Assembly (NCBI GenBank): GCA_045863235.1
Contig: BTUM01000145.1
Span: forward strand, 1 to 10,881
Length of the DNA: 10,881 nt
Direction of reading: 5' to 3'
Origin: Candidatus Xenobia bacterium
GTDB lineage: Bacteria; Vulcanimicrobiota; Xenobia; Xenobiales; QWHO01
Under the pieces are notes generated by a model. The model did not search any database and was not told the DNA's origin. It saw only the letters and a program-made list of their open reading frames with translations. Every line of letters begins with the position of its first letter. Within the stretch, counting starts at the first letter, position 1. The translations under genes were made by a program, and so were the position numbers. Of this stretch, positions 2,013-10,881 are shown in pieces.

Positions 2013-2130
2013 AGGCAACTCAAGAGCTTGAGGAAGGTTACTCCAGTATCGGCCCCGAAGCACCGGGTCGAACACTAGAAACGGCGCCATTCGTCGAGCC
2101 TGGTGCAATGTAAAGAGGAGTTTCGAACGT

Positions 2131-2172
2131 AGCATCGAAGCACCGTCGATGTTGAGAACTTTTTAAGTTTTT
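2131..2172 (+). terminator. Possible terminator or attenuator downstream of pilD
   Basis: Hairpin AGCATCGA(2131-2138)/TCGATGTT(2146-2153) followed after a few nt by TTTTTAAGTTTTT. The geometry is not canonical. Confidence 0.3.
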
Positions 2173-2331
2173 AGCAGGGTGAGAAACTGGAATAACGTAT
2201 TTCATCACCAGGGTGATCGGAGCTTTGAACCGGTCCCCTGACCTTTTGTCTGGAGATATGGGTAGGTGAGGCGAGTCGTCGAAAGTCGGTGGGGTTCGTT
2301 CCCTTCCCGAGCGGGAAGGGCAAGGTAGCTC

Positions 2332-3432
2332 ATGGACTTCTTTAAGAAGCTGTTTGGCGGGAGTCGTGCCCCGATGGTGGGTGGGCTGGACGTTGGCAGC
2401 AGCATGATCAAGGTGGCGCAGGTTCGGAAGACGTCTGCCGGAGCGCAGTTGGTCGCTTTTGGTGCCTGTCCAACCCCTCCGATGACCATTCGTGACGGGG
2501 CCGTGGTCGATGCACGAATGCTGGGCGATGCGATTCGTCAGTTGCTGGCCGACAGCAACGTCGCCGCCAATACCAAGATTGTCAGTGCTGTCACCGGTCA
2601 GCAGGTGGTCATTCGTCCGATCAGCATGACCAAGATGACCGAGAAAGAGTTGATCCAGGCCATCCGCTTCGAAGCCGAGCGCTACCTCCCTTACTCGGTG
2701 ACTGAGGCCCAGATTACCGGCATCAAGCTGCAGGACACCGACGAGAAGTCGATGGACGTCCTCCTGATCGCCGCTCCGAACGAGATGGTGAACAATGCCA
2801 AAGAAGTCGTCAAGATGGCCGAGGTGCAACCCGAGGCTATCGATCTGGAGCCGTTCGCGTTGTTACGGGCGCTGCAGTTGACGGCCTCGCCGGAAAAAAT
2901 GCAGCAATGCATTGCTCTCGTTAATCTGGGGGCTTCGTCGAGCAGTATTAATATTTTCAAGGGAGGTGTCCTGCGCCACAACAGAACCATCACGATCGCC
3001 GGCAATAGTTTTACGAAGGCGATCGGTCAATCCCTGAATCTGTCGTTCGAGGAAGCGGAGAAGATCAAAAAGGAGAAAGGCGTGATTCGGGTGGAAAAAG
3101 ATGCAACACCTGTACCGCCTACGACCATGAGGATCTTCAACGTGATACTGCCGGTGCTGACAGAGCTTGTGACCGAGGTCCAGCGGTCCTTCGACTACTA
3201 CCGTTCGCGCTATCGGGGCGAATCGGTCGACCTGGTTGTCTTGTCCGGGGGAACGGCTCGTTTCAAGAACATCGAAGCTTACCTCAGTAATGAGTTGAGT
3301 ATTCAGTGTGAAGTGGCCAACCCGTTCAGGAATCTCTCGGTTCAGAAAATCTCGGGGATGACTCCCGATGACCTGGAGGAGCTGGCGCCCTCCGCCATGG
3401 CCGTTATTGGCCTGGCCCTCAGGGAGGTTTAA
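2332..3432 (+). CDS. pilM: Type IV pilus assembly protein PilM (actin/FtsA-like)
   Basis: GLDVGSSMIKV phosphate-1 motif, IRFEAERYLPY, EVQRSFDYY, VVLSGGTA, and C-terminal IGLALR. Confidence 0.96.
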   Translation: MDFFKKLFGGSRAPMVGGLDVGSSMIKVAQVRKTSAGAQLVAFGACPTPPMTIRDGAVVDARMLGDAIRQLLADSNVAANTKIVSAVTGQQVVIRPISMTKMTEKELIQAIRFEAERYLPYSVTEAQITGIKLQDTDEKSMDVLLIAAPNEMVNNAKEVVKMAEVQPEAIDLEPFALLRALQLTASPEKMQQCIALVNLGASSSSINIFKGGVLRHNRTITIAGNSFTKAIGQSLNLSFEEAEKIKKEKGVIRVEKDATPVPPTTMRIFNVILPVLTELVTEVQRSFDYYRSRYRGESVDLVVLSGGTARFKNIEAYLSNELSIQCEVANPFRNLSVQKISGMTPDDLEELAPSAMAVIGLALREV

Positions 3433-3488
3433 AGGAGTTTGGCTAGTAACTATCTCGTCAATTTTGGGGTAGCCTCAGGAGGTACCAT

Positions 3489-4172
3489 ATGACCATCAAG
3501 GTGGACCTGCTACCTACCGAAAAAAAGAGGTTTGGGCTGGATCCGCTGGTTATCGTCCTGTTCCTGTTCGTGGTCCTGGCCACTGTGGCCATGTTCATGT
3601 GGAGCAAGAATCTCGAGAACCAGATCAGTCAGAAGCGGAATGCTATCGCAGAGGTTGAGAAGCAGATCAAAGACCTCGAAGCGCAGCTGCCCGTGCTCGA
3701 AGAGCGGCAGAACCGCATTCGGAAACTGAAAGAGCAGATCCAGATCATCAAGACTCTGGTCTATGACCCGGTTCGGTATGCCAACCTGCTCACGCAGATT
3801 ACTATGGCCCTGCCCGACAATGTCTTCTTGGAGTCCTTGACCATCGACCCGAGCAAGACCCAGGTCAACATGACGGGCAAAGCGGCCGAAGTCGGTGGCA
3901 CGCTCCCGCTGGCGACGATCTCGCTGCTGATGAAGAACCTGAACGACACCGAGTATTTCCGAGGTGCCTCGCTCAGTTCCGCGACGCGCGAGAAGTCCGG
4001 CGACATTCCGGCCTTCGCGTTCACCATCGACGTTGCTTACGACCCTCAGGCCGCGGCTGACCCGTCCAAGAAGCCGATGCTGCCTGGAACCGCTCCCGCC
4101 CCGGCTCCGGAGCCTGGCGCAAGTCCATCTCCGTCCGGCGACGAGACTACTGCGCCGCCGGCTCAGCCTTAA
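3489..4172 (+). CDS. pilN: Type IV pilus alignment protein PilN
   Basis: N-terminal IKVDLLP (variant of the PilM-binding INLLP motif), one TM helix, coiled coil, LPDNVFLESL, and a Pro-rich tail. SD AGGAGGT at 3477-3483. Directly follows pilM. Confidence 0.92.
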   Translation: MTIKVDLLPTEKKRFGLDPLVIVLFLFVVLATVAMFMWSKNLENQISQKRNAIAEVEKQIKDLEAQLPVLEERQNRIRKLKEQIQIIKTLVYDPVRYANLLTQITMALPDNVFLESLTIDPSKTQVNMTGKAAEVGGTLPLATISLLMKNLNDTEYFRGASLSSATREKSGDIPAFAFTIDVAYDPQAAADPSKKPMLPGTAPAPAPEPGASPSPSGDETTAPPAQP

Positions 4173-4187
4173 AGGAGGATCAGTATC

Positions 4188-4868
4188 ATGGCGCTTACTG
4201 CACCAATGAAAATATTCATCGCCCTGATCGTCATCGGACTGATCCTGGCGGGCTTCTGGTTTATGGACTACCAGCAGAAGTACAACGAGATCCAGCAACT
4301 GGATCAGAATCTCAAGCAGAGCGAAGAGAAGCTTGCCTCCAGCAAGCAGAAGCTTCAGGACCTGCCGCGGTTGACCGAGGAGATGCAGCAGCTCGAGCGC
4401 GAGCTCCAGTCGCTGATCGCCTCCAAGTTCACCAACGAAGATCCTGAGCTGTTCGTGGCCAACTATATCGCTGATATCGAGCGATTGGTTCTGGCCCAGC
4501 AACAGGCGACGGGCGACTCGACGTTCTCCATCGACTCGATTCAGCCGGGTCAGATGCAGACCACCTCAACTCCCGAGAGTGGAGATCAGGGTGGGCAGCC
4601 TGCCGGTAACGCTCCTCCTGCGCAGCCCGAGGGCGGCGCAGGTGAGGCTCCCGAGGCTCTGCAGGGCTTCCCGACTCGCGTCTTCTCGATGACGATGACC
4701 GGACGCTACGGCACCCTGGTCGAGTTCCTTTATCAGCTCGGTGCGCTCAAGCTTGATCGTCTCGTGACCATCAACAAGATCACGCTGCAGCCTGGCAAGG
4801 ACAAGAACCAGGGTGAAACCCTCAACATCCAGATTCCGATCACCGCGTATCTGCGGCAGGGAGGCTAG
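4188..4868 (+). CDS. pilO: Type IV pilus alignment protein PilO
   Basis: N-terminal TM helix, coiled coil ending DLPRL, and the PilO-type motif MTGRYGTLVEFLYQLGALKLDRLVTINKI. SD AAGGAGG just after the pilN stop. Confidence 0.9.
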   Translation: MALTAPMKIFIALIVIGLILAGFWFMDYQQKYNEIQQLDQNLKQSEEKLASSKQKLQDLPRLTEEMQQLERELQSLIASKFTNEDPELFVANYIADIERLVLAQQQATGDSTFSIDSIQPGQMQTTSTPESGDQGGQPAGNAPPAQPEGGAGEAPEALQGFPTRVFSMTMTGRYGTLVEFLYQLGALKLDRLVTINKITLQPGKDKNQGETLNIQIPITAYLRQGG

Positions 4869-4869
4869 A

Positions 4870-5619
4870 ATGAACAACAAGACGGTTGATTCCGTCCGAA
4901 CTGGTCTGCGCCGCCTGGCCCTTGGAACCGTGATCGGCGCAATGGTGATCGGAGGGGTTGCCTGTGGTGGGTCCCCCGCGCCGACTCCGACGGATAGCCC
5001 GACAGCCACGAGCACCGGTGCTGCTTCACCCAGCCCGGGCGACACGTCTTCGCCGTCGAGCAGCACAGGAACGCAGGGTGCTTCCGAGACCGTCAGCATC
5101 ACCGATACCGGCGCCGAGGCTCCGGCCACCGGTACGCCGGCGGCAAGTCCCACTCCCAGGGGAAGTCAGCCGCTAGCCAGACCGGTCCAGCAGCAGATCA
5201 CCCGGGACCCGTTCGTCAATCCATTGACGGGCGGAGGGGCCTCCCTGGCTTCGCGGCCTACCGTCCGGGCCACCCCGCGGGTCACCGCGGCGACCCCGGG
5301 CTCGACCGCCGCGGCTACTCCTGGAACCAAGGCGAGCCCGGGTGCTCAGGATGCGGCCGAGCCGGAGGAGGAAGTTCCGCCTCCGGATGTAACCGTGACC
5401 GGAATCGTCATGGGGGCGGGTCGTTCGTTCGCGATCGTCACCGGTCCCGAGCAGTCCTACATCGTCGGTGTGGGAGACAAACTGGTCGAGTATCGCATCC
5501 TGGCCATCAGTCCGCAGGCTGTCACCTTCGGGCTGAAGTCCAAGAAGTTCAAGGTCAAGCTCCAGGATGAATTTGGCGCTGACGCCGCTGGCACCAAGGC
5601 CACGGCGAAAGGGCGTTAA
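4870..5619 (+). CDS. pilP: PilP-like lipoprotein (249 aa) with long Thr/Ser/Pro/Ala linkers
   Basis: ATG 4870 is 1 nt after the pilO stop with GGAGG upstream. Lipobox-like GVAC (Cys32), RDPF motif typical of PilP, and C-terminal beta domain VTVTGIV...AIV...YIVGVGDKL...ILAI. Lies between pilO and pilQ. Confidence 0.8.
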   Translation: MNNKTVDSVRTGLRRLALGTVIGAMVIGGVACGGSPAPTPTDSPTATSTGAASPSPGDTSSPSSSTGTQGASETVSITDTGAEAPATGTPAASPTPRGSQPLARPVQQQITRDPFVNPLTGGGASLASRPTVRATPRVTAATPGSTAAATPGTKASPGAQDAAEPEEEVPPPDVTVTGIVMGAGRSFAIVTGPEQSYIVGVGDKLVEYRILAISPQAVTFGLKSKKFKVKLQDEFGADAAGTKATAKGR

Positions 5620-5634
5620 CAAAGAATGGCTCGT

Positions 5635-5810
5635 TTCGCCGGGCTCCGGCGGATAGTTTGGAAGGTGGTGATCTCGACCCCGGACTAACAAGTCAAAGCT
5701 ACAGGGCGGAATCTGGCGACGGAGGTTCCATTGAGTCCTGTGGCTGAGGTCGGTTTCACTCTTGCGCCTTCCGTCGTGGTGTGCGCAACAAAGTCGTTGA
5801 CTAGGAGGTG
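5635..5810 (+). promoter_or_regulatory. Candidate structured cis-regulatory RNA in the pilQ leader
   Basis: Several nested stems, a loop-to-downstream complementarity and an alternative anti-SD helix were found by eye (see findings). I do not recognise a known RNA family. Confidence 0.5.
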
Positions 5811-5821
5811 GGTTAACACCA

Positions 5822-7942
5822 ATGGTTTCGCTGAAGCAGAAGGGCTGGAAGCTTCTTCTGGCGTGCCTGATCGTCGCGGGAATGCTGGCTCCGGCCTACG
5901 CAGCTCCTGCCACGGTGTCGGAGGTCAAGGTGACCGATGGCACGGGCACGTTGAAGGTCGAGGTCTTGTCGAACGGTGCGATTTCGAACCGTACCAAGAC
6001 CCTGTCCCAGCCTCGCAAGATGATCGTTATCGATCTCTATCCCGCAGTTCTCGGTAAGTCGGCCAAGACTTCCGTGGACGTCAACCGCGGTCTGGTGGAG
6101 AAGGTCCGTCTGGTCCAGTACTCCGACACCACCGTCCGCATGTATGTCGATTGTATCTCGTTGCCGGTCTATAAGGTCGTGTCCGAGGGCGGACGTGGCG
6201 TGACCGTGGCTATCTCGAGCGCCATGATGTCGGAAGCGAAAGATCCCAAAGCTCCGACGACCGTCGCTGAGACGCCCGAAGTCGCCCCTCGTCCCCAGCC
6301 TCGTCCGCAGCCTCGACCCGTGGCAACGAGCCCGCGCCCCCAGCCTCGTCCGGTGGCGCGTCCGGCCTCCGCAATGGAGCCAGTGTCGGCTCCCGTGTCG
6401 GCTCTGCGTCCTCGCCGCCCGGCTCAGCGCGCCTATGTGCCGCGTCCGAAGCTGGTGTCGGTAGACTTCGTCAATGCTGACCTGGTCTACGTCATCAAGG
6501 TCCTGGGCAAGGAAATGAATAAGAACGTCGTGGTTGACCCGACCGTCGAAGGCTCGGTTACCGTGACCCTCAAGAGCGTCCCGGTCGAGGGCGCCCTGGC
6601 CCTGATTTTGAAGATGCAAGAGAATCCCTACGACTACAAGGTGCTCAATGACCAGCGCACCATCGTGGTCGCTTCGCCCGAGAAGCTCGGCGAGATCGCC
6701 GACAACATCATGGGCACTGCCAAGGCTCGCGATGCGGCCGTGGGCTCGGTTCGCCAGGAGTTCATCCTGGAAGCCGCCCCGTCTGCCAAGGTCGTCGAGT
6801 TTTTGCAGGGGCAGTATTTGAACGTCAAGTTCGTGCCCCATCCCACGATGAACGGGTTCTACGCCGTCGGTCCCAAGAAGGACATCTTGTCCATCAAGAC
6901 CGAGCTGCCGAACCTTGACCGCGTGCCTGAGCCTCCGCCGCCCCCGCAGCGTGAGTTCATGTATGTCAAGTACGGCGACATCCAGAACGTCCAGAATCTG
7001 CTCAAGACGCTGGTTCCTGACCTTCAGTACAACGCCGACGAGCGTCTTGGCATGCTGATCGTGGAGGGCACGCCCTCGGCGATCGACCAGGCCAAGCAAC
7101 TGCTGGCCGAGCTCGACCGTCCCAAGGATCAGGTCATGATCGACGTTAAAGTGGTCGACCTGACCGAGGGCGGCACCAAGCGTCTCGGCATCAACTGGTC
7201 CGACACCGGCATCGGTCAGGGCGTCTTCCAGACGACCTTTACCGAGGGTGCCACTTCGGCTGTGAACGTCCCTCTGGCTGCCGCCGGCATCACGCCTGGC
7301 GTCAACCCGACTGGCCCTCCTAACGCCGATACCGGTGTGGTCGAGTTCGCCGCGAATGCCACGGCCAACGGCTTCCAGATTCCCGGGGTGGGTGCGCCCA
7401 ACTTCCTTGGTCTGCCCATCCAGTCGTTTGCCCGTTCGCCGTTCGTGATCGTGTCGACCATCAACATGCTGGTCCAGACCAACGAGGCCAAGATTCTTGC
7501 TTCGCCTCGCGTGGCCACTCAGTCCGGCACTGAGGCTCTGATTCACATCGGTGACAAGTTCCCGATCGTGTATTTCGACCCTCGCGCCGGTCAGTTCCAG
7601 GTGCAGTATGTTGACATCGGCATCAAGCTCGACGTCAAGCCCGAGGTGAAAGCCGACGGCTGGATCGTCACTGAGCTGCGTCCCGAGGTCAGCAACCTGA
7701 TCGAGCTGGTCAACAACCAGTACCCCCGCACCGCGATCCGCACCGTCAATACGACGATGCGCGTCAAGGACGGCGATACCATCGTGATTGGTGGCCTGAT
7801 TCGTGAAGATGAGCGCGTCACCATCGCCAAGTTGCCCTTCCTGGGTGACCTGCCGGTTCTCGGCGTGCTCTTCCGCACCACCAGTGTGGACAAGAGCCGC
7901 AGCGAAGTGGTCATGATGCTCACCCCGCATATCATGCGGTAG
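5822..7942 (+). CDS. pilQ: Type IV pilus secretin PilQ (706 aa): signal peptide, AMIN domain, PRPQ linker, N domains, secretin domain
   Basis: Signal peptide ending AYA; AMIN-like PRKMIVIDL...VEKVRLVQYSDTTVRMYVD; N0 VSVDFVNADL; LDRPKDQVMIDVKVV; AKILASPRV; GDTIVIGGLI; KLPFLGDLPVLGVLFR; EVVMMLTPHI. SD AGGAGGTG at 5803-5810. Confidence 0.96.
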   Translation: MVSLKQKGWKLLLACLIVAGMLAPAYAAPATVSEVKVTDGTGTLKVEVLSNGAISNRTKTLSQPRKMIVIDLYPAVLGKSAKTSVDVNRGLVEKVRLVQYSDTTVRMYVDCISLPVYKVVSEGGRGVTVAISSAMMSEAKDPKAPTTVAETPEVAPRPQPRPQPRPVATSPRPQPRPVARPASAMEPVSAPVSALRPRRPAQRAYVPRPKLVSVDFVNADLVYVIKVLGKEMNKNVVVDPTVEGSVTVTLKSVPVEGALALILKMQENPYDYKVLNDQRTIVVASPEKLGEIADNIMGTAKARDAAVGSVRQEFILEAAPSAKVVEFLQGQYLNVKFVPHPTMNGFYAVGPKKDILSIKTELPNLDRVPEPPPPPQREFMYVKYGDIQNVQNLLKTLVPDLQYNADERLGMLIVEGTPSAIDQAKQLLAELDRPKDQVMIDVKVVDLTEGGTKRLGINWSDTGIGQGVFQTTFTEGATSAVNVPLAAAGITPGVNPTGPPNADTGVVEFAANATANGFQIPGVGAPNFLGLPIQSFARSPFVIVSTINMLVQTNEAKILASPRVATQSGTEALIHIGDKFPIVYFDPRAGQFQVQYVDIGIKLDVKPEVKADGWIVTELRPEVSNLIELVNNQYPRTAIRTVNTTMRVKDGDTIVIGGLIREDERVTIAKLPFLGDLPVLGVLFRTTSVDKSRSEVVMMLTPHIMR
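6287..6364 (+). repeat. Intragenic 12-bp repeat encoding (PRPQ)n in the PilQ linker
   Basis: CCTCGTCCCCAG CCTCGTCCGCAG CCTCGACCC... translates to PRPQPRPQPRPVATSPRPQPRPVARP. Confidence 0.8.
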
Positions 7943-7962
7943 ACTCTCGCCCGCGGGCAGAG

Positions 7963-7995
7963 AAAAGAGGCGGCTGAAAGGCCGCCTCTTTTTTT
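7963..7995 (+). terminator. Rho-independent terminator after pilQ, possibly bidirectional
   Basis: AAAAGAGGCGGCT-GAAA-GGCCGCCTCTTTTTTT. A second small hairpin (7944-7962) lies just upstream. Confidence 0.92.
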
Positions 7996-8279: not shown

Positions 8280-10881
8280 ATGCCCGCTGAGCTTGACAAC
8301 CTCCTTCGCGAAGCCGATCAGTTCTATGCCGAGCGCCAGTGGGAGCAAGCTCTCGAGCGCTACCAGAAGGCACTTGAGCTCGAGCCCAACAACGGTGAGG
8401 CCTGCCACCGCATGGCCCAGGTCTATGCCGTGCGCGGCATGCTCAACAACGTCATCAACACCTACTTTCAGTTGATCGATATCCTGGAAGCCAGCGGCAA
8501 CCTCGAAGGAGCGGTCCAGGTCGCCGAGTGGATCATGATGCTGCGCCCCGAGTCCGACAAGGCTCGCATGAAGCTGATCCTGATCTACCAGAAGCGGGGC
8601 GATCTGGCCGAGGTGGTGCGCCAGTCGCGTGAGCTCGCCAGGCTCTACATCGAGCTCGGCCAGGGCGATCAGTCCATCGCCCTGCTTCAGAAGGCCCAGC
8701 AGGCCGATCCTGAAAACCTCGATATCGGCCTGGAGCTGGCCGAGATGTACGTCAGCCATGGCCACATCCAGGATGGGGCCAACCAGTATCGCAAGGTGGC
8801 CAACTCGTTCATGGACCGCCAGATGTTGGACAAGGCGGCTGAAGCATTCCGTCGCATGAAGGTCATCGTGCCCGATGACCCGGGCGTGCTCTTCACCCTG
8901 GGGAATCTCTACGTCGAGCTGACCCGTTACAATGAGGCTGAGCAAGAGTTTCGGAGCATCCTTCGGCACAATCTCAACCATGAAGAGGCGCTGTTGGCGC
9001 TGGGCAACGTCTGTCAGCTTAAGGGCCAGTTCCGCGATGCCATTCTCGCGTTCAACAAGATCCTGACGATCAATCCTGAGCAGGTGGCCGCCAAGGAGAA
9101 GCTGGGTGAGCTGTATCAGGCTCAGGGCCTGGTTTCTGAGTCTATCAAGAATTTCCAGGACGCCGCCAAAGGATACCTTGAGATCGATGAGCGCGATCGC
9201 GCCATCCGCATTTATCAGATCATTTTGGGGATGGATCCCAGCAATCCGACTGCCTGTCGCGAGTTGACCAACCTGGGGGCCCCTCTGGTCCCTATTCAAC
9301 TCGAGGATGAGCGGGCCGCGGTGCGGCAGGCAGCCGAGCAGGCGGCCGCAGCTGCCATGGCGGCGAAGGCTCCTGAAGAGTCAGTCGAGGAGGCTGCTGC
9401 CGAAGCCCCTCCTTCCCGCGCTCGGAAAGCGCGCGAGGAGGGCTCTCCCCGGCCCGGCTTGCGACCCGGTTTGACGGCGGCCGGCGGGGCCGCTCCTGCG
9501 ACTGGTGGCCTTCTGGCCAAGGGCAAGGTCAAGAAGGAAGGTGCTGTTCCTGAGAAGCCTCTACTGGGCTCTGCCAGCGGCCCGCGCCCCGGGCTGATGC
9601 GTCCCGGAGTGTCTGCGGGTGCGTCCCAGCCCGGTGGCGACAAGCCGCTTCTGCCGAGGCGCAAGGAAGCTCATGCGGAGGCCGTTGAGGAGCCGGTGGC
9701 CGAGTCGCCCGGTTGGTCTCAGCCGGTCGCCGAGACCACCACCGAATGGCAGCCCGAGGCCCAGGCCGCCGCCTGGACCGATCCCAATTCAGGTACCTGG
9801 TCCGAGCCCGCCCCCGCGGGCTGGGACCAGTCCGGGTCCTGGGAGCAGTCTTCCTCGGGGAACTGGGAGCAGCCGCCTGCTGCCGAGGCCCCTCCGAGCT
9901 GGGAGCAGCCTGGCGTTGGCGAGACGGCCACTGGAGGCTGGGAGCAGCCTGCGGCAGAGACCTGGGAGAGCGCGCCGAGTCCTGCCCCTGCACCCGCCTG
10001 GGAAGCGGCGCCCGCCGAGCCCACCTGGGATGCGGTCCCGGCTCCTCCTGGCGAGGATTGGGGTTCCGCGGCCCCCCCGGTTGCGCCCGCCGAGGCGCAG
10101 CCCACCGGCGATGAGGAGCAGCACAAGCCCTCGATTCGTCGCGGGCTGGTTCGGCCCGAGGGGACGGAAGCATCGACTGGCGGCCTGCAGTCCAAGGGCA
10201 TCCTGGGGGGAAAGGCCAAGTTGGGTGGAGAGAAACCCGGTTTCTCGGCCGAGAGGCCGAGTCTGCTTGGAGGCCGTCCAGGTCTGCGCGGAGGCGCTGC
10301 GAGCGAGAAGCCGACCTTGCCCCGCAAGGACGTCGAAGAGACTCCAGTGGCCGAGACTTTCCCCGGCGAAGTCCGGGCCCCCTTGCAGTCGGTCCAAGGC
10401 GAGTCGCTCGACTCTGGTGGCCTTGCCGCTCCCGCCGGTTGGGAGGCAGGCGGTTTTGCTCCCTCTCCCGAGCCGGTAGGCGAGGGCTTCTCCACCTTTG
10501 GGAGCGGCTTTGAAGCCCAGCCCGTAGCCGAGGGATTCACTCCCGGTGCTTTTGGATTCGAGAGCACCTTCGCCCCCGCGCCCGAAGCCGGCAGTTTCGG
10601 CGCAGCGTCCGCTGATTTCGGGGCTTCGCCGGCGACCGACTTTGGCCAGTCGGCCGAGACCCCGGTTCCTGCGACGGACTTCGGCCAGTCCAGCTTCCCC
10701 CCCCCGGCGACCGACTTCGGGTCCAGCTTCGCCCCTCCGGCGGCTGACTTCGGCCAGTCCAGCTTCCCACCCCCCGCGACCGACTTCGGGTCCAGTTTCC
10801 CCCCCCCGACGCCGGCGGCTGACTTTGGCCAGTCCAGCTTCGCGCCCCCGGCGCCGGCGGCTGACTTCGGCCAGTCCAGCT
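8280..10881 (+). CDS. Large TPR-repeat protein with a long low-complexity disordered tail; 3'-truncated, at least 867 aa
   Basis: SD AAGGAGG at 8264-8270 and ATG at 8280. Hand translation shows no stop to the window end and begins MPAELDNLLREADQFYAERQWEQALERYQKALELEPNNGEACHRMAQVY. TPR signatures (LFTLGNLYVELTRYNEAEQEF, LLALGNVCQLKGQFRDAILAFNKILTINP) run to about 9280, then P/A/G/E/S-rich sequence follows. No signal peptide or TM helix is seen. Confidence 0.93.
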   Translation, partial: MPAELDNLLREADQFYAERQWEQALERYQKALELEPNNGEACHRMAQVYAVRGMLNNVINTYFQLIDILEASGNLEGAVQVAEWIMMLRPESDKARMKLILIYQKRGDLAEVVRQSRELARLYIELGQGDQSIALLQKAQQADPENLDIGLELAEMYVSHGHIQDGANQYRKVANSFMDRQMLDKAAEAFRRMKVIVPDDPGVLFTLGNLYVELTRYNEAEQEFRSILRHNLNHEEALLALGNVCQLKGQFRDAILAFNKILTINPEQVAAKEKLGELYQAQGLVSESIKNFQDAAKGYLEIDERDRAIRIYQIILGMDPSNPTACRELTNLGAPLVPIQLEDERAAVRQAAEQAAAAAMAAKAPEESVEEAAAEAPPSRARKAREEGSPRPGLRPGLTAAGGAAPATGGLLAKGKVKKEGAVPEKPLLGSASGPRPGLMRPGVSAGASQPGGDKPLLPRRKEAHAEAVEEPVAESPGWSQPVAETTTEWQPEAQAAAWTDPNSGTWSEPAPAGWDQSGSWEQSSSGNWEQPPAAEAPPSWEQPGVGETATGGWEQPAAETWESAPSPAPAPAWEAAPAEPTWDAVPAPPGEDWGSAAPPVAPAEAQPTGDEEQHKPSIRRGLVRPEGTEASTGGLQSKGILGGKAKLGGEKPGFSAERPSLLGGRPGLRGGAASEKPTLPRKDVEETPVAETFPGEVRAPLQSVQGESLDSGGLAAPAGWEAGGFAPSPEPVGEGFSTFGSGFEAQPVAEGFTPGAFGFESTFAPAPEAGSFGAASADFGASPATDFGQSAETPVPATDFGQSSFPPPATDFGSSFAPPAADFGQSSFPPPATDFGSSFPPPTPAADFGQSSFAPPAPAADFGQSS
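9714..10061 (+). repeat. Degenerate Trp-centred peptide repeats (W[ED]QP-like) in the TPR protein
   Basis: 13 Trp in 116 codons. CTGGGAGCAG occurs at 9839, 9863, 9899 and 9938. Confidence 0.85.
10632..10881 (+). repeat. Coding tandem repeat encoding A[TA]DFG(Q)SSF[PA]PP; runs to the window end
   Basis: GACTT(C/T)GG units at 10638, 10677, 10713, 10746, 10782, 10821 and 10863. Periods are 33-42 bp and all multiples of 3. Confidence 0.92.

Follow-up and report, generated by a model that had tools for sequence, protein, structure and literature searches.

A genus-restricted structured RNA in the pilP-pilQ spacer of a Candidatus Xenobia bacterium: a possible ribosome-docking element rather than a ligand-sensing switch

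The c-di-GMP-II riboswitch, which precedes the pilin operon of Clostridioides difficile, is a stem-loop with a loop pseudoknot and features a kink-turn between its stems. In the Csr system, CsrA is titrated by the decoy RNA CsrB, and RNase J is the nuclease blocked by classical STAB-SD elements. Riboswitches for c-di-GMP also occur 5' of pilus genes elsewhere (PMC1950547 and PMC11477304), the c-di-GMP-I type being described as two adjacent hairpins with an AAA linker and a GNRA-type P1 loop (PMC1950547). Precedents of a different kind are the structured UTR with a very strong Shine-Dalgarno (SD) sequence of Bacillus subtilis hbs (PMC5737220) and the hindrance of RNase E scanning by ribosomes and coaxial base pairing (PMC9943677).

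The locus described here lies in a window of 10,881 nt, the whole stretch of DNA that was analysed, from the genome of a Candidatus Xenobia bacterium (G000, contig C145). According to the ORF list and Pfam, a sigma-70-family fragment is followed in this window by a pilin, a prepilin peptidase, PilM, PilN, PilO, an ORF in the pilP position, PilQ and a TPR protein. The pilP-position ORF (4813-5619, plus strand) has no Pfam match and is named only by its place between pilO and pilQ, and the secretin gene pilQ (5822-7942, plus strand) encodes AMIN, STN/N0, Secretin_N and Secretin domains. From the pilP stop to the pilQ ATG, the spacer measures 202 nt.

An earlier note, made from the letters of this DNA, had proposed that the spacer forms a riboswitch-like RNA controlling secretin translation, albeit one lacking the c-di-GMP-I and -II consensus. 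The latter point was borne out, as no Rfam model matched the spacer at E <= 10 or any of ten homolog loci at E <= 5. RF01051 (c-di-GMP-I/GEMM) gave no match in the spacer at E <= 10 and none in the genome, where the search controls also gave none; RF01786 (c-di-GMP-II) matched neither spacer nor genome, with a positive control in Deinococcus. Of the two-hairpin c-di-GMP-I core, the spacer has an AAA between hairpins P2 and P3, but P2 is not conserved and no GNRA loop was seen. With regard to the kink-turn of c-di-GMP-II, inspection found an ATTGA bulge opposite GGGC that lacks tandem G-A/A-G partners and reads ATCGA or TTGTGAA in homologs. As a separate observation, G000 contains 37 GGDEF matches but no c-di-GMP riboswitch match.

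With the c-di-GMP-II element of C. difficile the spacer shares its position 5' of type IV pilus genes and a stem-loop whose loop could form a pseudoknot; unlike it, the spacer has no model match, kink-turn or terminator-based expression platform and is single-copy and intercistronic. The likeness to c-di-GMP-I/GEMM, which is listed 5' of pilM, pilO and pilQ (PMC1950547), ends at the missing two-hairpin core (AAA linker, GNRA loop) and model match. The hbs 5' UTR of B. subtilis and STAB-SD elements of the cryIIIA type resemble the spacer in their structured untranslated region, very strong SD, SD-like sequence lacking an obvious start and the presence of RNase Y (PMC5737220), whereas the spacer is intercistronic, holds its SD mimic in a long-range helix with a pseudoknot alternative and comes from a genome in which RNase J was not found. 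As in STAB-SD elements, strong 16S complementarity occurs here without a normal start codon, a near-cognate mini-ORF being possible. The RNase J search used model TIGR00649 on G000, which is 97.6% complete. RNase E/G is present, as in the case of the scanning obstacles, where downstream RNA is shielded by coaxial pairing or by a ribosome bound to the message (PMC9943677), but the pseudoknot and the 5'-monophosphate entry site are only putative in the spacer. Similar to CsrA/RsmA targets with CsrB/RsmZ decoys, GGA is found both in a hairpin loop and in the SD, and a stand-alone small RNA carries the same motif; however, CsrA was not found in G000 and is absent from 37 of the 44 class genomes (found in 7), and the small RNA, besides containing an ORF, is poor in GGA repeats.

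Upstream of the operon, a putative SigH-like promoter of pilMNOPQ is located at 2116-2139 (plus strand; AGGAGTTT, 12 nt, CGAA) and resembles the consensus quoted in PMC8510167. By eye, such a site was seen 5' of pilM in G004, G013, G019, G037 and G040, weakly in G010 and not in G027; SigH is encoded in G000 (C103:7468-8046, match above cut-off), and the promoter pattern was not enriched genome-wide. The conserved site and the encoded SigH suggest, at the level of sequence, SigH control of the pilus operon. An ATCACC/GGTGAT palindrome 5' of pilM, considered as a shared operator, was rejected because it is lost in G004. At the other end, an intrinsic-terminator-like hairpin with a T run (7963-7995, plus strand), found by reading the sequence and absent from the listing of a scan, appears to close the operon.

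Within the spacer, neither a sigma-70 nor a SigH-like promoter match was found, and an internal promoter was rejected on these grounds. RNA-library contigs, taken from 4 of 22 listed runs, include X1 and X3, which compute to window positions 2140-7936 and about 3628-7962, respectively, both running across the spacer and ending near the terminator. They are a hint only, since contigs show neither strand nor starts, DNA carry-over is possible and this DNA may itself derive from X1. Together with the lack of a promoter match in the spacer, they argue that the folded region is an intercistronic spacer rather than a 5' leader, and the element likely sits inside a SigH-driven pilMNOPQ message. A low-depth contig of run X8 begins at 5636, exactly at hairpin H0 and after a gap, which, being one contig in one study, is no evidence; run X18 adds A5697G, with the pair kept, and its remaining changes were already seen in G001 or L044.

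All pairings listed in the earlier note, i.e., P1, P2, P3, P4, the loop and the SD pairing, are present in the sequence at the coordinates given there, except that the P3 loop spans 5715-5722. The folded arm (5667-5760, plus strand) consists of P1a, P1b, the non-conserved P2, P3a and P3b, with pair probabilities of 0.96-1.0. The expectation that the region folds better than shuffled controls held moderately for 5660-5830 (z -2.84; 3/200 shuffles as good) and more weakly for the originally proposed 5667-5810 (z -1.68; 9/200). The opposite strand reached z -0.60, so the better-than-shuffle fold is confined to the coding strand, and z <= -2.8 was also reached by 10 of 197 other gene-upstream regions of G000 (folded out of 316 candidates from crude gene calls).

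For comparison, four sequences were aligned (G000, G001, L044 and G004), nearly all informative changes coming from the divergent congener G004, which is 79% identical over the region. One metagenome scan for close homologs returned two near-identical loci only, L043 and L044, of which L043 was left out as it showed no difference from G001 by eye. The covariation anticipated in the earlier note was present in P3b, which keeps 7/7 pairs in G004 with three two-sided and two one-sided changes, but not in P2, which is broken there. P1a is kept across the four sequences, P1b has one mismatch in G004, and P3a is largely intact, G001, L044 and G004 having a single mismatch apiece. Over the whole predicted fold, to which the alignment had been fitted, six pairs show two-sided changes versus 2.3 in shuffles (2/500). 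Judged from this comparison, the long arm P1/P3 is a real RNA structure, its covariation being contributed by one divergent species.

Loop L3 and the following AGG (GGCGACGGAGG, 5715-5725, plus strand), a predicted pseudoknot strand that contains a third GGAGG, are invariant in the four sequences. As 54 of 79 fourfold-degenerate pilQ sites are identical, the invariance of 12/12 positions in the loop and its flanks (p ~0.01) and of 36/36 positions of the 3' block from 5763 onward (p ~1e-6) exceeds the neutral rate and indicates that both are under constraint. An ORF behind the loop GGAGG (5731-6057) was rejected, its TTG being lost in L044 and different in G004. Towards pilP, hairpin H0 (5636-5654, plus strand; core 5638-5642 with 5646-5650) has an invariant core in the four sequences and a probability of 0.98 in the fold from 5620, which drops to 0.01-0.32 with other 5' ends. 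It is preceded by an A-rich stretch after the pilP stop (5617-5632, plus strand), unpaired in the same fold and a candidate endonuclease entry site.

The element is single-copy: among the 44 class genomes, the covariance model R1 finds it in three, which all belong to this genus, with one match per genome; two further weak matches lie inside a coding region. A BLAST search for extra copies in G000 gave only short chance matches, a repeat or mobile element was rejected because of the single copy, and one viral sequence scan gave no match. No literature account of the spacer element or of the small RNA was found, judged by title and abstract opening and excluding subscription papers and supplements. 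The spacer is a real, previously undescribed structured RNA that is restricted to its genus.

The idea of one strand with competing partners, also put forward in the earlier note, is supported. The C-rich switch strand CGCCTTCC (5765-5777, plus strand) may pair with L3, giving the pseudoknot, or with an SD mimic, GGAAGGTGGTGATC (5660-5673, plus strand), which has no start codon at normal spacing and provides the 5' strand of both P0 and P1a. Helix P0 (5660-5667 with 5765-5772) dominates in the model, with a probability of 0.92-0.95 whenever 5660 is included; its 5' strand lies just outside the region first outlined and had been missed. A helix equivalent to P0, with changed bases, occurs in both spacers of genus g5. 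P0 overlaps the pseudoknot strand 5771-5777 and excludes hairpin P4 (5762-5788, plus strand), of which 5/6 pairs are invariant in the four sequences. The P4 fold lies 5.2 kcal/mol above the P0 fold before pseudoknot energy and reaches a probability of 0.95 when the 5' motif is blocked.

The loop-to-3' pseudoknot itself is plausible, with both strands invariant, but a duplex as good as its 7-bp one turned up in 10% of cases when the 3' block was shuffled and in 24% when the remainder of the spacer was. Covariation is absent because both strands are invariant in the four sequences. The 7-bp pairing extends to 10 bp with 5768-5777, and an extended 11-nt L3 duplex, chosen after the fact, was matched in 0.9% of block shuffles. 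Given the 5.2 kcal/mol gap of P4 and a loop duplex of -11.5, the state with P4 and pseudoknot could, by rough estimate from the model, be energetically close to the P0 state.

The proposed pairing of the C-rich strand with the SD itself was not confirmed: each of the 11 5' ends tried gave it an ensemble probability of 0.0, its energy exceeds the minimum by 9.3 kcal/mol, and shuffled sequences pair as strongly in 83% of cases (7 bp) or 27% (flanks included). The anti-SD/anti-anti-SD switch is therefore not supported in the form proposed; its SD-sequestered state is unpopulated, and what really competes with the pseudoknot is the SD mimic on the 5' side instead of the SD. In the model, 9.8 kcal/mol are needed to open 5803-5824 from the P0 state and 7.8-8.2 from the remaining states. 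Access to the ribosome-binding site would accordingly vary by only 1.6-2.0 kcal/mol between states, which is little for a switch.

Using the 16S 3' end of G000, located on C136, for duplex energies, the mimic pairs with the genome's own 16S tail at -16.9 to -20.3 kcal/mol, compared with -15.0 for the real SD, and its scan value of -18.2 is reached by none of 316 other upstream regions of G000. A 9-mer of it, GGTGGTGAT, is common to five of eight genera and never to more than three in 500 shuffles of one representative per genus. It is situated 135-173 nt 5' of the ATG, varies in g2 and is missing in g3, g6 and g7; in G004, changes of the mimic keep the pairing with the 16S tail (-14.4, by our reading of the alignment). 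The predicted fold hides the mimic within P0 and P1a, and blocking it flips the model to P4. Across homologs, blocking lowered the opening cost of the SD region in 8 of 15 spacers, raised it in 6 and left it equal in 1, within the range of random blocks, and this effect in both directions argues against a conserved coupling switch. In genus g8 (L013, L022-L024), a much longer, highly conserved and multi-branched spacer carries GGAAGGTGGTGATC about 280 nt 5' of pilQ.

The wider family comprises 29 of 30 pilQ loci, L004 having no upstream DNA. The ribosome-binding site of pilQ, AGGAGGTGGGT (5803-5813, plus strand), contains GGAGGTGGGT, which is found in all 29 order-level spacers whether pilQ follows pilP, pilO or pilM and is rare as an SD in G000. 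It shares eight bases in up to eight genomes versus two to five for the sites of pilA, pilM, pilN and pilO, the starts of which were approximated from tblastn. In family f4, a short spacer with GGAGGTGGAT was present in the three loci examined, and in two genomes outside the class only GGAGGTG is kept 5' of pilQ. All 29 spacers fold at z <= 0 compared with a genome median of -0.3, although sequence and fold differ from genus to genus; what is kept is structure and complementarity to the 16S tail, and not an aptamer.

Several further observations were made on these loci. Operon order varies (L187-L189), pilQ directly following pilM in g2 and g5 and pilO in g4; within the stretches fetched, no pilN, pilO or pilP match was found in g2 and g5 and no pilP match in g4. 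In the last 45 nt 5' of pilQ, G-U-rich, RNA-thermometer-like hairpins are predicted over the SD in g4 (L006-L008, L011, L012) and g2 (L009, L010, L014, L015, L021, L025, L026), with one-sided changes only in both genera. Sharing of the 10-mer by infC was rejected for the 20 of 30 infC loci listed; in most of these 20 (from L108-L137), infC appears to be ATT-started, and IF3_N matches number two or three in some genomes of g2 and g5.

In our reading, to which we assign a probability of roughly 0.4, the spacer is a genus-conserved intercistronic element that docks ribosomes and protects the mRNA, thereby raising and tuning secretin output, and not a ligand-sensing switch. Cleavage by RNase Y or RNase E/G would take place in the A-rich stretch that follows the pilP stop, leaving a new 5' end that H0 would cap. 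A 30S subunit could then occupy the mimic and displace P0, allowing P4 and the pseudoknot to form, and the ribosome together with the pseudoknot might protect the pilQ segment from decay and make its SD somewhat easier to reach. The covariation of P3, the rank of the mimic as best 16S-tail match among 316 upstream regions, the shift to P4 upon blocking it and the presence of both RNase Y and RNase E/G in G000 support this reading, as do the precedents of hbs and of RNase E obstacles. Against it count the failure to find RNase J, the paired state of the mimic in the model, its loss in g3, g6 and g7, the short spacer of f4 and the 36 invariant bases 5' of the SD, which a pure stabiliser leaves unexplained. 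If the spacer does hold a ribosome-binding decoy, it would show how the last gene of pilMNOPQ is tuned apart from the rest, in a phylum (Vulcanimicrobiota) where regulation of type IV pili is almost unstudied.

A less likely alternative is that the GG(A/U)GGUG strings are sites for a trans-acting factor, either a protein or an Hfq-assisted RNA, that controls pilQ translation and is titrated, like CsrA by CsrB, by a class-wide small RNA serving as decoy. This RNA was found from one of five AGGAGGTGGGT strings in G000 (C78:25715-25925, minus strand; L143, and L086:915-1140, minus strand). It is an intergenic 210-nt RNA with a sigma-70-like promoter, a terminator and a z of -4.53, has no Rfam match and recurs in homologs L138-L161. 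Model R2, built from 15 copies and run on 44 class genomes and a 151-genome phylum sample, gave one strong match per genome in 24 of the 44 (f1 5/5, f2 16/16, f4 2/3, f5 1/1, f3 0/19) and no credible match outside the class, five weak phylum-level matches being rejected as they look like coding sequence. All 21 copies parsed, out of 24, have a promoter match, and 22 of 24 carry the GGAGGTGGGT 10-mer exactly. An ATT or ATC follows the 10-mer by 3-4 nt in 18 of 19 tabulated copies, with 21 or 24 nt to the hairpin in 18 of 19, and an in-frame stop is present in all 19, moving by one codon where mutated. The resulting micro-ORF starts with AUU, has about 14-15 codons and ends in P-T-x-G-G-V-G/A-A. 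Hairpin H4 covaries in three pairs; neither the CGGA of its loop nor a UCCG on the 3' side varies, a CGGA/UCCG pseudoknot is likely, and the same strand retains 100% pairing with the SD through wobble changes.

The invariance of the 10-mer 5' of pilQ, its rarity as an SD elsewhere in G000 and its recurrence in this stand-alone RNA speak for such a factor, and so does the distribution of Hfq (28 of 44 class genomes; 0/14 in g3, g6 and g7): the mimic is present in the Hfq-positive g1, g4, g5, g8 and g9, a variant in g2, and lost in the Hfq-negative genera. However, Hfq absence there may be one loss in reduced genomes, 7 of the 10 bases are an ordinary strong SD that is also found 5' of pilQ outside the class, CsrA was found in just 7 of the 44 genomes, G000 not among them, and the small RNA in none of the 19 genomes of f3, although these retain the pilQ motif. 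Pairing in trans between the small RNA and the spacer was rejected, as there is no conserved site and cognate duplexes are no stronger than non-cognate ones; an antisense seed of at least 10 nt was found in no plausible G000 RNA. For a link between the small RNA and pilQ, no signal was found in trans-pairing or in co-distribution with CsrA, and no copy was found in f3. We regard as unlikely the fuller version, an undescribed post-transcriptional Xenobia circuit in which an invariant GGAGGUGG(G/A)U site 5' of pilQ, with SD mimics and pseudoknot, is read by a factor titrated by the class-wide RNA; the same low expectation applies to its other half, namely that the RNA belongs to the circuit through the shared site, the AUU-started 14-15-codon ORF and a CGGA/UCCG pseudoknot like that of the pilQ spacer. 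If true, this would be a Csr-like system without CsrA, possibly with the 30S subunit itself as the titrated factor. The small RNA is in any case a candidate new RNA family with a conserved AUU-started micro-ORF and may be a more valuable lead than the spacer. In genus g1 (5/5), it adjoins a 114-aa protein with a likely signal peptide (G000:C78:25303-25647, plus strand; L086:504-845), which resembles the STN/N0 domain of PilQ below Pfam cut-offs.

Another explanation that we think unlikely is a mini-ORF in frame with the mimic (5668-5688, plus strand; GTG or ATC start, TAA stop; a weak candidate from translation), the ribosomes of which would melt P0 and couple pilQ to translation of the upstream genes. 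Its main evidence is an in-frame stop within six codons in 9 of 15 motif-bearing spacers (g1 3/3, g4 4/5, g5 2/2) versus a background of 0.19, but early stops are missing in g8 and g9 (0/5), which leaves three of five genera, and these are related. ATG starts are seen in g4 and g5, and G000 and G004 stop at the same place with different codons, whereas the start in g1 would be ATC or GTT at poor SD spacing. The drop in opening cost from 9.8 to 7.8 kcal/mol in G000, obtained in one model, shrinks to only -0.6 with a larger footprint, and the effect on SD access is inconsistent across homologs.

Returning to the riboswitch of the earlier note, what stands is a conserved, structured RNA 5' of pilQ; the switch core differs, and the grounds for a riboswitch are weak. 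A genus-specific version, in which a ligand would stabilise the L3 pseudoknot against P0 and turn pilQ translation on, is improbable in our estimate. It would account for the invariant loop and 3' block, it gains from the rough energetic closeness of the P4 and pseudoknot state to the P0 fold (5.2 kcal/mol gap, duplex -11.5) and from the 37 GGDEF matches, and c-di-GMP riboswitches do precede pilus genes elsewhere (PMC1950547, PMC11477304). The spacer, however, has no Rfam match and lies inside an operon, and an aptamer would be expected in several copies across genera, instead of once per genome in 3 of 44 genomes of one genus. Several features of a translational riboswitch are also lacking: no SD-sequestering OFF state is populated, the modelled range is below 2 kcal/mol, and the aptamer is neither shared across lineages nor repeated before related genes.

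That the spacer folds without any regulatory role and the strong SD alone matters is very improbable, for although 10 of 197 upstream regions fold as well, the pseudoknot match arises by chance in 10-24% of cases and independent sequences are few, P3b holds a concentration of two-sided changes, more positions are invariant than the neutral rate predicts and GGTGGTGAT recurs in five of eight genera versus at most three in 500 shuffles.

Apart from the spacer and the small RNA, a few observations concern the window and its genome. A 705-codon open frame runs antisense to pilQ (5813-7930, minus strand) and is also present in several orthologs, probably as a codon-usage shadow. The C-terminal end of the TPR protein (10540-10881) consists of short repeated units of the A-A-D-F-G-Q-S-S type. 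Elsewhere in G000 (C34:8852-9026, minus strand; L107), a probable divergent 6S RNA scores 35.5 bits versus the Rfam cut-off of 46.4.
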